DNA of 64,000 nucleotides from an uncultured virus (IMG/VR IMGVR_UViG_3300021960_000024). Lineage: Duplodnaviria; Heunggongvirae; Uroviricota; Caudoviricetes. Where the stretch lies: the IMG/VR virus record IMGVR_UViG_3300021960_000024, one strand, 5' to 3'. The notes beneath the pieces are model-generated. The model had not been told where the DNA came from, did not search any database, and saw nothing but the letters and a program-made list of their open reading frames with translations. Position numbers and translations under genes: made by a program. Numbering within the stretch: position 1 is the first letter of the stretch; every line of letters begins with the position of its first letter. Of this stretch, positions 42,998 through 58,062 are shown one piece after another.

Positions 42998-43714
42998 ATG
43001 TTTAATCATGTAGGGGTGGAGTTGCAACCCATAACAGCAACTAATAAGGACGGTGTTCGTCTATATGAGACACCAGAGGGTAATAAGTATCCATCAATCA
43101 CAACAGTTCTATCAGTCCGTAATAAGAAGGGACTGATGGAGTGGCGTAAGAGGGTAGGTAATGAAGTTGCCAACCATGTAGCACGAACTGCTGCGAATCG
43201 TGGCACTAAGGTTCACCACATGTGTGAAGATTACCTCAACAACATGCCGACCAATTTCCCCAAGGAATGGGCGAAACACAAGAAGAATTTCCTGCCATAT
43301 TGTCTTTTTGGTCAACTTGCAGACAAAGCATTATGCAATATTGATAACATATATGCACAAGAAGCAGGACTCTATAGTGATAAATATAAGGTAGCGGGAA
43401 GGGTTGATTGTATTGCAGAGTACAATGGTGTACCGTCGATTATCGACTTCAAGACATCAACCAAAGAGCGTAAAGACGAATGGAACGAAAGTTATTACAT
43501 TCAGGGTTCTGCGTATGCAGAGATGTTCGGAGAAAGAACTGGCATAGAAATCTCTCAGGTAGTGATTTTAGTAGTAACAGAGGATGGAACTGTCCAAGAG
43601 TTTGTAAGAGACAAACACGAATACCTTGATGCTCTAGTGGAAACCGTTGCAGAATGGAGCAAACAGAATGAAACCTCTAGTAGCAGTACTGGCAGTGTTT
43701 CTGTTAATGGGTAG
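42998..43714 (+). CDS. PD-(D/E)xK exonuclease
   Basis: YPSITTVL, RGTKVH, AGRVDCIAE, IIDFKTS, YYIQ..AYA. Confidence 0.85.
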   Translation: MFNHVGVELQPITATNKDGVRLYETPEGNKYPSITTVLSVRNKKGLMEWRKRVGNEVANHVARTAANRGTKVHHMCEDYLNNMPTNFPKEWAKHKKNFLPYCLFGQLADKALCNIDNIYAQEAGLYSDKYKVAGRVDCIAEYNGVPSIIDFKTSTKERKDEWNESYYIQGSAYAEMFGERTGIEISQVVILVVTEDGTVQEFVRDKHEYLDALVETVAEWSKQNETSSSSTGSVSVNG

Positions 43715-44042
43715 CCAAACCTTAGCGCAAGAAACAATTCCAGAACCACAAGATTTAAAAGAATTTCCAAATTGGATTGTAACACAGAAACCTGTGTTAT
43801 GCGGTCCTGTAAAGGAAGTTATGGATAAGGTCAAAGAGTTTGGTGAAGAATCAATTTCCGCTTGGGTAGATGCAGAACAGAAAAGTGTTGTCATGTCCTA
43901 TATAAATGAAACCACGGGTACAGCCACAGTATTAGAAATACAGGGTAAGTGGGCGTGTATTTTAAGTCAGGGAGTGGGTGGAACTTTACTTTCATTACCA
44001 AAAAAAATTAAAGGAATGCCAATAAAGCACTTGACTTATTAA
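43668..44042 (+). CDS. Secreted hypothetical protein
   Basis: Signal peptide; KPVLC...ACIL. Confidence 0.55.
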   Translation: MKPLVAVLAVFLLMGSQTLAQETIPEPQDLKEFPNWIVTQKPVLCGPVKEVMDKVKEFGEESISAWVDAEQKSVVMSYINETTGTATVLEIQGKWACILSQGVGGTLLSLPKKIKGMPIKHLTY

Positions 44043-44065
44043 TCCCCGTGTGTTATATATAAGAT

Positions 44066-44475
44066 ACAATTTGATGATACGAATTGAATACAGAACTGGA
44101 CGGGGGTGCGATACCCCCCGCCTCCACCAAAAGGAGATTGTCATGAAAGAGATGATATCAGGAGATTCAGATGAAGAATCCTCTAGTAAAAAAAATATCG
44201 GTATTTATGTTTAAGTTATATATTCTTTGGAGTGTATGCGCTGATATTATTCTCATTTCTGGTATCATAGCCTTGTTACTTGGTTATGGTAAAATCTCTT
44301 TTTGATGGGGGCGAAATAGGATCGACAGGCTGGAATAGATGAGTGGAGAATTGTCGGATGACTGCGTTATTGGTCAAATTTCTAAATGCAAACGATAATG
44401 CAAACTATGGAGATTACGCTCTAGCAGCATAATCTTTCGGGGTTCGGTGGGTTCCTTGCAACAGAATACCCACCA
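44066..44475 (+). ncRNA. ssrA: Circularly permuted two-piece tmRNA (alphaproteobacterial type); outer ends approximate
   Basis: Acceptor piece ends GGGGGTGCGATACCCCC-CGCCTCCACCA at 44129; coding piece starts GGGGGCGAAATAGGATCGAC at 44307; G3.U wobble; tag ANDNANYGDYALAA* at 44388-44432; TTGACT promoter at 44031. Confidence 0.92.
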
Positions 44476-44493
44476 CTTTATTCAAAAAGAGTA

Positions 44494-44522
44494 TTGACAA
44501 ATATATAATAACCTGTTATACT
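44494..44522 (+). promoter_or_regulatory. Sigma70-like promoter
   Basis: TTGACA-17-TATACT. Confidence 0.75.
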
Positions 44523-44532
44523 CTGTATATAA

Positions 44533-44581
44533 TGTCACTGATGAGTTTGTGAAATTCAAACGAAACACTTTGTGTCTGACA
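44533..44581 (+). ncRNA. Hammerhead ribozyme (type I)
   Basis: TGTCA-CTGATGA-GTTTG(tgaaatt)CAAAC-GAAA-CAC(ttt)GTG-TC-TGACA: complete core and three helices. Confidence 0.88.
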
Positions 44582-44622
44582 AATATTGTCTAACTTATCA
44601 TCTTGAAAGGATGAATTATACT

Positions 44623-44892
44623 ATGACTAAAACTACGACTAAGACTTCTAAGGTTATTGCCGCTCTCGAAAACGGTACTGAACTTACTGCGAAACAGATT
44701 AGCGCTCGATATGGCGTTAAGAATGTTCGAGCGCTCATGAGCTCACTTCGTATGCAGGGATATCCTGTATATCTCAACAAACGCACTAGTGTGTTTGAAG
44801 GTGAGACTAAGGTTTACAATAAGTATCGTATTGGTAAGCCAACCCGTGCTGTGATTGCTGCTGGTTATCGTGCTCTTGCACAGGGTGTCTGA
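44623..44892 (+). CDS. Small HTH-like DNA-binding protein
   Basis: LTAKQISARYGVKNVRALMSSLRMQGYPVYLN; YRIGKPTRAVIAAGY. Confidence 0.65.
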   Translation: MTKTTTKTSKVIAALENGTELTAKQISARYGVKNVRALMSSLRMQGYPVYLNKRTSVFEGETKVYNKYRIGKPTRAVIAAGYRALAQGV

Positions 44893-44988
44893 TTAACAGA
44901 CTAAATACCACTACTAACGGGTGATGCCGTAATACATCCGTGAGGGGCCAACGGTTAGCCCCTCAACTTTTAAAGGGAGACTAAACAA

Positions 44989-45360
44989 ATGAAGAAACTA
45001 ATGATCGGAGTTGCACTAGCAACTTGTATTTCAAGTGTTGCTATGGCAGAAGAGAAGAAAGTTTCATCTGTTCTACCTAAAATTGACATGTCCTTTGTGA
45101 CTGATACTGAGCGTAATGTAACTCAGGAAACAACCTCTACAAAATTTGGTGTGGTTGCTGGAATTAAGGGATTTGATCTGTCAGTTAAACCATCGTTTAG
45201 CTGGGACGACAGTGAAATTTCTAATGTTGAGTTTTGGGGTGGATATACATTTGATGTGAATGAATCCTTTGGTATTACACCTTATGGTGAAGTCAATTTC
45301 AATAATGATTTTGAAACCGCCGATAAAATTGTCGGTGTTAAGACTGAATATAAGTTCTAA
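44989..45360 (+). CDS. Small outer-membrane beta-barrel-like protein
   Basis: Signal peptide; amphipathic beta strands; C-terminal VGVKTEYKF. Confidence 0.6.
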   Translation: MKKLMIGVALATCISSVAMAEEKKVSSVLPKIDMSFVTDTERNVTQETTSTKFGVVAGIKGFDLSVKPSFSWDDSEISNVEFWGGYTFDVNESFGITPYGEVNFNNDFETADKIVGVKTEYKF

Positions 45361-45372
45361 GACTAAAGGTTA

Positions 45373-45403
45373 CGGGGTTCCTTTCAAAAACCCCCATTTT
45401 TTA
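45373..45403 (+). terminator. Intrinsic terminator
   Basis: GGGGTT...AACCCC followed by a T-run. Confidence 0.6.
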
Positions 45404-45419
45404 TTTTAATGGAGTACAC

Positions 45420-45638
45420 ATGGCACTGAATACTGCAAAGACATTTTCGATGGAAATCGAACGTATTGCAAACGAAAAGAATATCACTCATTTGGAAGCA
45501 GTCCTTGACTATTGCCATCGTCAAGAGATTGAACCCGATACAGTGGGCCGTCTTATTTCCAAGAGTCTCAAAGAGAAGATTGAAGCAAACGCACGGGAAC
45601 TAAACTTTCTTCCAAGACAGGCACAGCTTCCAGTATGA
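45420..45638 (+). CDS. gp33: Late transcription coactivator (T4 gp33)
   Basis: FSMEIE, HLEAVLDYC, SLKEKIEANARELNFL; lies before gp59. Confidence 0.85.
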   Translation: MALNTAKTFSMEIERIANEKNITHLEAVLDYCHRQEIEPDTVGRLISKSLKEKIEANARELNFLPRQAQLPV

Positions 45639-45757
45639 CATATGAACTGAAAGTTCCAAACGGAACATACAGGGCAAATAATTTATTTGTTCTATTCTTC
45701 ACTGTAGTCAAACATAGACTGCATCATTTAATTAAAGACAGGAAGTTTATGGACTGA
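45635..45757 (+). CDS. Small hypothetical protein
   Basis: Coupled by ATGA and TGATG overlaps on both sides. Confidence 0.45.
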   Translation: MTYELKVPNGTYRANNLFVLFFTVVKHRLHHLIKDRKFMD

Positions 45758-45903
45758 TGAAACATCTCAAGGAAAACAACACTAACTATTTTATGCACCT
45801 TGCTCATGCGTGGGTGATGGCTATTGTTCTAATTATTCACGGGGTAATCCCCTGCATTTTAACTGATTGGGTATCGAAGCGTATCTGTAATGGAACCGAT
45901 TGA
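45757..45903 (+). CDS. Small membrane protein
   Basis: MKHLKENNTNYFMHL..IHGVIP. Confidence 0.5.
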   Translation: MKHLKENNTNYFMHLAHAWVMAIVLIIHGVIPCILTDWVSKRICNGTD

Positions 45904-46471
45904 CGTTTATCTAATGTACTGTGCTATGAAAGCACACTTTGGTAAGGGTGACTATGACTTTGTAACATACAAGGGCAAGACTCGTATCAAGAGAGACACC
46001 TTCTATAAACGTAAGGACAGATCGTTCTTCGTAAAACTTTCACGCAAGTACAACACAGAACAAGAAATTCAAAACTACTTTGTATCAAATTTCATCAAGG
46101 ACAAGAAGGGGTATATTGCCAACTTCAATGATGAGAACTACGAGTCATGGAAACTAAAACGACAGGGTTTCTTTGATCTGTTTGAGGTAGAGATGAAACC
46201 TCTTGTAGAAGCGTTTGAGGATTTGTTCACAGTAACGAATGGGCAGCACCCAAAATTAATGAAAGAGTTTCTAGGTGGCCGAGTGTCATTAGAGACATTG
46301 ATCATACTAGATGAGCTGGTCAACTTTGGACCAGATTGGAATAAACAATTAGAGGATGATATCATATGGATTGATTTAGATAATCTGATGAATAATTACG
46401 AAAGGTTCTTGACAATTGATCAAGAACAGTATAAGATAAGACTATTAAAACTCATAGAGGAGTCCAGTTGA
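45890..46471 (+). CDS. gp59: Helicase loader (T4 gp59)
   Basis: YLMYCAMKAHF, YDFVTYKGK, KRKDRSFFVKLSRK. Confidence 0.85.
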   Translation: MEPIDVYLMYCAMKAHFGKGDYDFVTYKGKTRIKRDTFYKRKDRSFFVKLSRKYNTEQEIQNYFVSNFIKDKKGYIANFNDENYESWKLKRQGFFDLFEVEMKPLVEAFEDLFTVTNGQHPKLMKEFLGGRVSLETLIILDELVNFGPDWNKQLEDDIIWIDLDNLMNNYERFLTIDQEQYKIRLLKLIEESS

Positions 46472-57357: not shown

Positions 57358-58062
57358 ATGAAGACATACAACGAACTACAGGAAGGGTTGCAAGACCCCA
57401 ATATATTTAAAGCATTCTTTCTCGCCGGTGGACCAGGCAGTGGTAAGTCTTTCGTTGTCAGAAAGTCTACCGGCGGTACAGGACTCAAGATAGTCAACTC
57501 TGATGATGTCTTTGAGAAGTATCTCAAAGATGCTGGTCTAGAAATGGACATGACAACGGCAAAGGCTGAGCGTCAGAAGGAACCTAGAGACAAACTGCGT
57601 GATCGAGCAAAAGTGGTGACGCAAAAAAAGCAGGATAACTATGTTGATGGTCGCCTTGGACTCATCATAGATGGCACGGGGCGTGACTATGATAAGATTG
57701 CAAAACAATCAAACGAGCTTAAAAGACTTGGTTACGACACTCACATGATATATGTCAATACCTCGTTGGACGTTGCACTTGCTCGTAATGCAGAGCGTGA
57801 ACGTAAGGTACACGCCTCAATTGCAACAAAATCGTGGAAAGACGTTCAGTCCAACCTTGGTAAATTCAGTCAGCACTTTAGGGGCAACCTGATTATTGTT
57901 GATAATAACGATGTAAAAGTGGATGACGGCACATTGTTCAATAGTGTGTTGAGACAAGTCAGAGGTTTGCTCAGGAAAAAGGTGCGAAATCCTACAGCAC
58001 ATCAGTGGATTGAGATGGAGATGAAGCGCAGAGGCATCACAAAAAAACCCAAGGGATTCTAA
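57358..58062 (+). CDS. Zeta-toxin-like P-loop kinase with a capsid-targeting-like N-terminus
   Basis: MKTYNELQE; FLAGGPGSGKS, VNSDD, IIDGTG, ALARNAERER. Confidence 0.75.
   Translation: MKTYNELQEGLQDPNIFKAFFLAGGPGSGKSFVVRKSTGGTGLKIVNSDDVFEKYLKDAGLEMDMTTAKAERQKEPRDKLRDRAKVVTQKKQDNYVDGRLGLIIDGTGRDYDKIAKQSNELKRLGYDTHMIYVNTSLDVALARNAERERKVHASIATKSWKDVQSNLGKFSQHFRGNLIIVDNNDVKVDDGTLFNSVLRQVRGLLRKKVRNPTAHQWIEMEMKRRGITKKPKGF

Follow-up and report, generated by a model that had tools for sequence, protein, structure and literature searches.

The stretch of DNA analysed here, referred to as the window, is 64,000 nucleotides long and represents a piece of a T4-like phage genome. Near the site under study lie genes for a late-transcription coactivator, a helicase loader, a single-strand binding protein, a thymidylate synthase and PhoH, with genes for a primase, a helicase, and baseplate and tail proteins farther away, and the RNA runs that contain this stretch are marine. 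The features from the tmRNA to the two-hairpin element after the winged-helix gene are all on the plus strand. The first is a two-piece (permuted) tmRNA of the alphaproteobacterial type (44027..44477; Rfam RF01849, 115.1 bits; RF04321, 116.9 bits; placed at 44037-44523 by ARAGORN), a type that suggests an alphaproteobacterial host; its 3' hairpin is predicted by folding at 44446-44474. The intervening segment of this tmRNA (44131-44305) is long and carries a Shine-Dalgarno sequence and a short open frame, and similar inserts are found in relatives.

Downstream, positions 44623..44892 encode an 89-aa winged helix-turn-helix protein (PHROG 4973). An earlier note on this DNA had called the gene small and HTH-like, a description borne out by a match to Pfam HTH_39 (25.6 bits, above the cut-off of 21.3 bits). 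The structure model (pLDDT 83.7) consists of three helices, a wing and a C-terminal helix; the nearest entries in a fold search were winged helices, none with E < 0.001, and a sequence search against solved structures returned nothing significant. Among 1054 candidates, 913 proved to be relatives of this protein, and distant ones occur in Pelagibacter phage HTVC008M, Methylophilales phage Melnitz and Stenotrophomonas phage DLP6, all annotated as hypothetical. The stop codon is followed by a conserved two-hairpin element (44917..44964), recognized by folding and conservation and without a match in Rfam, which is probably the 3' boundary of the message or the leader of the next gene. This element comes in 36 distinct versions with near-invariant loops (in the window and in its relatives L001-L078 and L246-L405), and one variant disrupts a loop-loop pairing to which the window had pointed. 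Positions 44989-45360 encode a beta-rich protein that looks secreted and matches nothing in Pfam or PHROG; it is possibly an outer-membrane protein.

Between the tmRNA and the winged-helix gene lies a sigma-70-type (early) promoter (44494..44522), with its -35 element at 44494-44499 and an extended -10 element at 44517-44522. The arrangement TTGACA-17-TATACT scores 11/12, has a TG extension and is the best of the 10 promoter-like sites in 43000-46000, a count which by itself is at chance level (8.9 expected). From the usual 7-nt spacing, the message is predicted to start at 44529, in agreement with the earlier note. Four nucleotides after this predicted +1 begins a type I hammerhead ribozyme (44533..44581), recognized by motif and conservation. 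Its parts can be read directly from the sequence: stem I (44533-37/44577-81), the core CUGAUGA (44538-44), stem II (44545-49/44557-61), GAA (44562-64; GAAA, 44562-65), stem III (44565-68/44572-75) and the GUC cut triplet (44574-76), in which C17 is C44576. Stem I is open and stems II and III are closed by loops around the core, as in the type I topology, and CUGANGA, GAAA and the NUH cut triplet appear in order. The complete hammerhead ahead of a small gene, with a predicted cut after C44576, stands as the earlier note had it, and all core bases are present.

The core pattern has a single match in the window and none in 100 shuffled sequences. Both Rfam models score below their gathering thresholds: RF00008 (Hammerhead_3), a type III model set against a type I topology, gives 27.5 bits (threshold, 48.5; E 0.0013), and RF03152 (RAGATH-1-hammerhead) gives 20.1 bits (threshold, 56.3; E 1), with its matched 5' hairpin located upstream of +1 and not conserved in relatives. 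Since the plain folding energy of the region is no more favourable than that of shuffled sequences (z about 0), the case for a ribozyme rests on its motif and on how well this is conserved, and not on the energy of folding. All 14 stem pairs are intact in each of 19 distinct variants (266 cells, 100% paired), which were gathered by a pattern requiring the core and in which the core bases are invariant; a compensatory pair change in stem II is present in 7 of the 19 and a wobble in stem I in 2, whereas a 20th variant has a different stem I wobble. These pair-keeping changes represent few events among close relatives. The contrast between columns is stronger: across 24 unique ribozyme leaders, 3 of the 36 ribozyme columns are variable, compared with 13 of 17 in the adjacent promoter spacer. 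In addition, 238 loci found through the protein were classified without requiring the core. Leaders of this kind fell into 20 types that are intact, 6 that are short and a single duplicate that has decayed, and in no case had a core base been substituted; this classification needed the 5' strand of stem I, and a general scan recovered the single variant that it had missed. With an invariant core, preserved pairs and variable flanks, the ribozyme is, on this comparison, under purifying selection.

The 3' strand of stem I is shared with a second structure, hairpin H (GACAA-ATA-TTGTC, 44578..44590), which rivals stem I before the cut and would cap the 5' end after it. The overlap and competition described in the earlier note are reproduced by folding, in which H is predicted to displace stem I once 44590 has been transcribed. 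In predicted folds of the growing transcript, the probability of stem I is about 0.9 from 44582 to 44588, H dominates from 44591, and the full leader leaves stem I a probability of about 0 at equilibrium. With stems II and III held, H has the advantage across 25 variants, its margin over stem I being 0 to 1.5 kcal/mol at 37 C and 1.5 to 2.6 kcal/mol at 15 C; the two folds are so close in energy because they use the same five letters. According to these models the cut could be slow. Nevertheless, because the energy model omits the tertiary energy of the active fold and because five-base helices exchange fast, H should delay the cut without preventing it, and then expel the 5' piece and block re-ligation. 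Longer read-through precursors are predicted to fold alike, with stem I still forming. H is kept in relatives despite loop changes, a wobble and a form longer by 5 nt, and one of its arms overlaps a motif that is conserved family-wide for another reason. Two further pairings were rejected: an extended (distal) stem I (44529-32 with 44586-89) has a less favourable energy in the window, is interrupted in L112 and L347, comes under strain in L330 and does not occur in the wider family, and pairing of the core strand with the anti-Shine-Dalgarno strand is confined to short prefixes and gone in the full leader.

The sequence underlying H is, in many relatives, a perfect 14-bp DNA palindrome located ahead of a winged-helix gene, and could therefore be an operator through which the protein regulates its own gene, with the clash with the ribozyme being incidental. 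We regard this as very improbable: there is no second copy of the palindrome in the window or in the collected loci (seeming additional matches were the known sites read from the opposite strand), the changes it has undergone (a G-U wobble, loop insertions) fit an RNA helix, it lies about 50 nt past +1, and it is lost in deletion variants.

The wider family offers natural comparisons. From 324 loci, after those with < 150 nt upstream were dropped, we obtained 98 unique leaders of the winged-helix gene. The ribozyme is present in 24 of them, which are close relatives rather than independent trials, and absent from the other 74. On a tree of 97 genes (in which L002 and L065 were counted as 'anc' although their leaders are short and of the deletion type), the ribozyme state is mosaic, with 9 changes, at least 7 of them forced. 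This mosaic state indicates that the leader moves by recombination and has been lost repeatedly. Clean deletions of the ribozyme recur, showing it to be dispensable, and repeated loss together with presence in 24 of 98 leaders implies that the gain it brings is small or conditional. One short leader type retains the first core bases, which suggests that it arose by deletion from the ribozyme form; it folds as a 9-bp hairpin that begins exactly at the base matching the predicted +1.

Such a history might also be that of a mere passenger that is tolerated: the hammerhead could have come into the leader, been spread by recombination and be for the most part inactive because H out-competes it. The mosaic distribution and the recurrent deletions are in line with this possibility, as is the near-zero equilibrium probability of stem I, and the low diversity of the ribozyme could reflect recent spread. 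We nevertheless judge it quite improbable, given that no core base has changed while flanks 10-20 nt off on both sides vary freely, that every change in the stems keeps the pairing, and that, if there were no cut, these messages alone would miss the 5' hairpin of their relatives.

This last point emerged from a score of the local pairing of each message's first bases. A 5'-terminal hairpin is predicted for all 24 cut products and for none of the 24 uncut ribozyme leaders. It is likewise found in 11 of 14 ribozyme-less leaders with a promoter and, in the distant Melnitz-like clade, in 22 of 25; among other promoters, taken from the window and from the same loci, the count is 7 of 19. The Melnitz-like hairpins comprise several unrelated sequences, and under a cruder rule the counts are 28 of 32 compared with 4 of 10 window promoters. 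Taken together, these counts suggest that the winged-helix message has been selected to start with a hairpin, so that phages bearing the ribozyme would achieve such a start only if the RNA is cut. The pattern provides the best indirect evidence for the activity and the purpose of the ribozyme, and it supports the proposal of the earlier note that self-cleavage would yield an mRNA with a 5'-OH and a hairpin cap. Moreover, the plain hairpin usual in ribozyme-less relatives suggests that the cut protects the message rather than destroying it.

Several observations on relatives concern the same region. In L029 and L030, two contigs reflecting one event, the leader is duplicated around an inserted gene (L029:2040-3000), which encodes a 2OG-Fe(II) oxygenase in an arrangement resembling the PeSL cassettes of T4-type phages; the copy preceding the inserted gene lacks stem III and the cut site, and that preceding the winged-helix gene is complete. 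In L227 (578-700), and also in L296, L298 and L346, the same promoter is followed at this place by another structured RNA (z -2.8), the 5' end of which resembles RAGATH-30, at a non-significant E of 3.3. A recurring two-hairpin leader without an Rfam match is found 60 nt before the gene in L336, L337, L345, L350, L363 and others, and a related contig contains a glutamine riboswitch (L343:96-153; 40.7 bits, Rfam threshold 35). Two loose hammerhead-like matches in the Melnitz-like clade lack stems and were rejected.

We consider it probable that the leader is a constitutive device for 5'-end maturation, a natural counterpart of the synthetic insulator RiboJ that would furnish a longer-lived mRNA with a 5'-OH and a hairpin cap. 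Host RNA polymerase would start at about 44529. Stem I is predicted to form upon synthesis of 44581 and, nine bases later, H could displace it, with the two folds exchanging. To judge from its complete and conserved core, the hammerhead fold would then cut itself after C44576 and shed a 5' piece of 48 nt, and the freed strand is predicted to fold into H, ejecting this piece and barring re-ligation. The resulting mRNA would begin with a 5'-OH on a hairpin, 46 nt ahead of the start codon. The winged-helix message would presumably live longer, because such an end gives RppH no triphosphate and RNase E no monophosphate, and the protection would extend to messages from its own promoter and from upstream read-through alike. 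The ribozyme would be an upgrade on the plain 5' hairpin of most relatives, with which it appears interchangeable.

The longer life of the message is argued by analogy with the behaviour of RNase E and RppH. RNase E is stimulated by the 5'-monophosphates that RppH generates, and 5' stem-loops stabilise messages (PMC7509114); in the same review, an effect on stability of the 5'-OH ends made by primed initiation is described as not yet reported. RNase E and G act on 5'-monophosphate ends in preference to 5'-OH ends, and in T4, 5'-OH ends require Pnk before the two enzymes act (PMC3014915). Against a longer life, a kinase of the phage could phosphorylate the 5'-OH away, as happens through Pnk in T4. 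A P-loop kinase with AAA_33 and Zeta_toxin domains and a weak match to polynucleotide kinase is encoded at 57358-58059 of the window and is a candidate 5'-OH phosphorylator. RNA evidence comes from four runs, as assembled contigs devoid of molecule ends, the breaks of which coincide with strain variation; one of these contigs (X7 record 27) crosses the cut site uncut, which counts against the proposed cut, though it may be DNA or precursor.

Given the proximity of the tmRNA, the main task of the cut might instead be to sever the gene's message from transcripts reading through from the strong tmRNA promoter, with a 5'-OH replacing the processed monophosphate end. The tmRNA 3' hairpin lies within 200 nt in 26 of the 32 ribozyme contexts and directly precedes 32 of 60 promoterless ribozyme-less leaders, an adjacency from which it follows that read-through into the gene is likely normal in the family and that the ribozyme would cut it; stem I, as noted, is predicted to form in longer precursors as well, and processing of long phage transcripts is a published proposal (PMC3088659). 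On the other hand, every ribozyme leader with sufficient upstream sequence has its own promoter ahead of the ribozyme, 6 of the 32 contexts have no adjacent tmRNA, and ribozyme-less relatives retain theirs; the ribozyme travels with the promoter and the gene, not with the tmRNA. We therefore find it rather improbable that severing is the main job. As for the suggestion of the earlier note that read-through tmRNA transcripts could be trimmed, trimming is possible where the hairpin is near but would be at most secondary, and the cut cannot create the mature tmRNA end, being about 100 nt beyond the tmRNA. A possible hammerhead core behind a tmRNA acceptor piece among the RNA contigs was rejected, as no complete hammerhead was present among 121 matches.

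Farther along the leader, a hairpin of 7 bp (44598..44614; -5.1 kcal/mol) closes over the Shine-Dalgarno sequence AGGA (44608-44611). The unpaired probability of the latter is 0.10-0.28 and is the same before and after the cut. In the uncut RNA of the window, the 5' strand freed from stem I is predicted to pair with the start codon (P 0.72-0.98). Family-wide, the start region is closed by other means: a GUCA(U/C) motif is conserved before the Shine-Dalgarno sequence in 64 of 74 ribozyme-less leaders and pairs with the start codon region, with a probability > 0.5, in 51 of the 65 leaders bearing it, and in a distant clade (L527-L529, upstream of 401) the motif and the start/second codon change together. 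From this pairing and covariation, the leader motif is identified as a family-wide element of translational control that would keep the gene translationally closed throughout the family. In ribozyme-less leaders, e.g., L007:2950-3000, pairing of this motif with the start region, to which it is complementary, forms a helix that encloses the Shine-Dalgarno sequence.

Some translational control therefore exists, and the leader might be a regulated switch or timer in which the share of H and hammerhead folds depends on temperature, on Mg, on the speed of transcription or on a protein, which might be the winged-helix protein. The H fold would correspond to an uncut, short-lived RNA with a single-stranded 5' triphosphate end and the hammerhead fold to a cut, capped and long-lived one, with cutting turning the gene on. 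The near-equal energies of the two folds in all 25 variants, the shift towards H in the cold and the blocking of the start codon in the uncut window RNA would suit such a device. However, the near equality follows from the five shared letters, the opening of the Shine-Dalgarno sequence is unchanged by the cut, there is no sign of an aptamer-like region or ligand site, and the deletion variants manage without a ribozyme. Cleavage is predicted to free the start codon in 17 of 24 variants at 25 C, but the effect goes beyond that of shuffled 5' pieces (at or below the 10th percentile) in 3 of 24, the window itself standing at 0.12. The translational form of the switch proposed in the earlier note thus found no support, and we view a regulated switch in general as unlikely. 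The same holds for its more elaborate version, a natural self-capping ON switch built like RiboJ, in which a cap derived from the ribozyme's own stem delays and then locks the cut and the fold balance, set by temperature or the encoded protein, times the mRNA life of an early regulator; we doubt it, although, if true, it would be a natural hammerhead whose cut conditionally raises expression of its host gene.

Such a switch would be the reverse of the glmS ribozyme, where self-cleavage likewise takes place in a bacterial 5' leader. The glmS ribozyme is ligand-gated and its cutting leads to decay, whereas in the window no ligand site is seen and the cut is predicted to stabilise the message. 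RNase J-type exonucleases can attack 5'-OH ends, as they do in the case of glmS, a point that speaks against protection by the cut.

Type I hammerheads of phages and prophages have been described, and their activity published, by Perreault et al. (2011, PMC3088659), who proposed that they cut long transcripts into single-gene messages; in haloviruses HF1 and HF2, 13 nt separate the hammerhead from the start codon that follows, and the transcript has its mapped 5' end at most 3 nt from the cut. The window ribozyme shares the core, the topology and the intergenic location in a phage with these examples. It differs from them in its position 4 nt behind its own promoter, with almost nothing upstream to remove, in a 3' strand that would re-pair as a cap hairpin, and in the existence of natural deletion alleles. 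In a full-text literature search, with most subscription journals outside its scope, we found no natural promoter-proximal hammerhead with a cap hairpin. Four exact ribozyme strings had no match in 11 of the 12 supplementary files of PMC3088659, whose aligned sequences carry gaps; the window ribozyme may be part of that dataset or stand unremarked in published alignments.

The closest parallel is artificial. RiboJ has the same order of promoter, hammerhead, hairpin and ribosome site, leaves a hairpin-first message after the cut, and gave about twice as much mRNA and two to ten times as much protein (PMC6206723). Unlike this hand-made part, the window leader is natural, its cap hairpin is drawn from its own stem I strand and hence competes with the ribozyme, and a second hairpin closes the ribosome site. 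With the PeSL cassettes (Arbiol et al. 2010, PMC2839356), the leader shares a sigma-70-like promoter, a stem-loop and a Shine-Dalgarno sequence in a module mobile by recombination, a likeness that extends to the duplicated leader of L029 and to the mosaic on the gene tree. PeSL stem-loops, however, are described there as G/C-rich terminators located mostly in or over the promoter and present in many copies, whereas the hairpins of the window leader are A/U-rich and lie after +1, and the leader is predicted to be catalytic; one copy of it is present in the window and one each in G001, G002 and G003 (partial records, 33-40% complete). In T4, RegB likewise cuts within early leaders and produces a 5'-OH there, the fate of which is set by phosphorylation through Pnk (PMC3014915). 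RegB, however, is a protein and destroys the Shine-Dalgarno sequence, whereas the cut in the window is predicted to be catalysed by RNA, 31 nt upstream of AGGA, which stays intact.

Most genomic hammerheads of bacteria and phages are described as functional orphans, and the processing of long transcripts is regarded as a suggestion in need of more work (PMC6765202). The present locus removes the usual ambiguity about the role of a hammerhead because there is nothing upstream to process. It also comes with natural controls, i.e., near-identical phages of which some have the ribozyme, some a clean deletion leaving a plain 5' hairpin and some unrelated hairpins, and thereby turns the notion that phage hammerheads change mRNA stability into a question for a three-allele reporter. 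In addition, the locus offers a natural insulator part of 62 nt. Hammerhead chemistry is unchanged by the finding, and the ribozyme is dispensable.

Finally, a search of viral contigs with the core and the UGAAAU loop II yielded at least 122 stretches, from which 55 distinct sequences outside the window's clade were parsed (5 loci were unparsable); the shared loop II of this group, being part of the search pattern, is circular. Among the matches listed, stem I is mostly 5 bp long, the base adjoining stem I is A in 52 of the 55, as it is in the window, and the first four pairs of stem II, which lie outside the search pattern, are complete in 37 of 38 distinct sequences. With its short stem I, neighbouring A, paired stem II and three bases between +1 and stem I, the window ribozyme fits this group, which is drawn here and is not a named family. 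In the PLMVd hammerhead, stem I has 5 bp and loop 1 is UAA, and a contact joining loop II to stem I is conserved in most natural hammerheads (PMC3064770). We infer from the sequence that the window ribozyme shares this tertiary contact, the likely partner of loop II being the unpaired UAA just 5' of stem I (44530..44532). Phage hammerheads do not in general carry a hairpin on the 3' product, which was found in 13 of the 55 matches listed (mean 0.32, compared with 0.35 for shuffles). None of these 55 fits the strict promoter pattern; by eye, the hammerhead of L098 appears promoter-proximal. In the unrelated phage hammerheads L094, L095, L096, L103 and L115, the 3' strand of stem I could re-pair after the cut with a downstream copy, suggesting that the latch design recurs.
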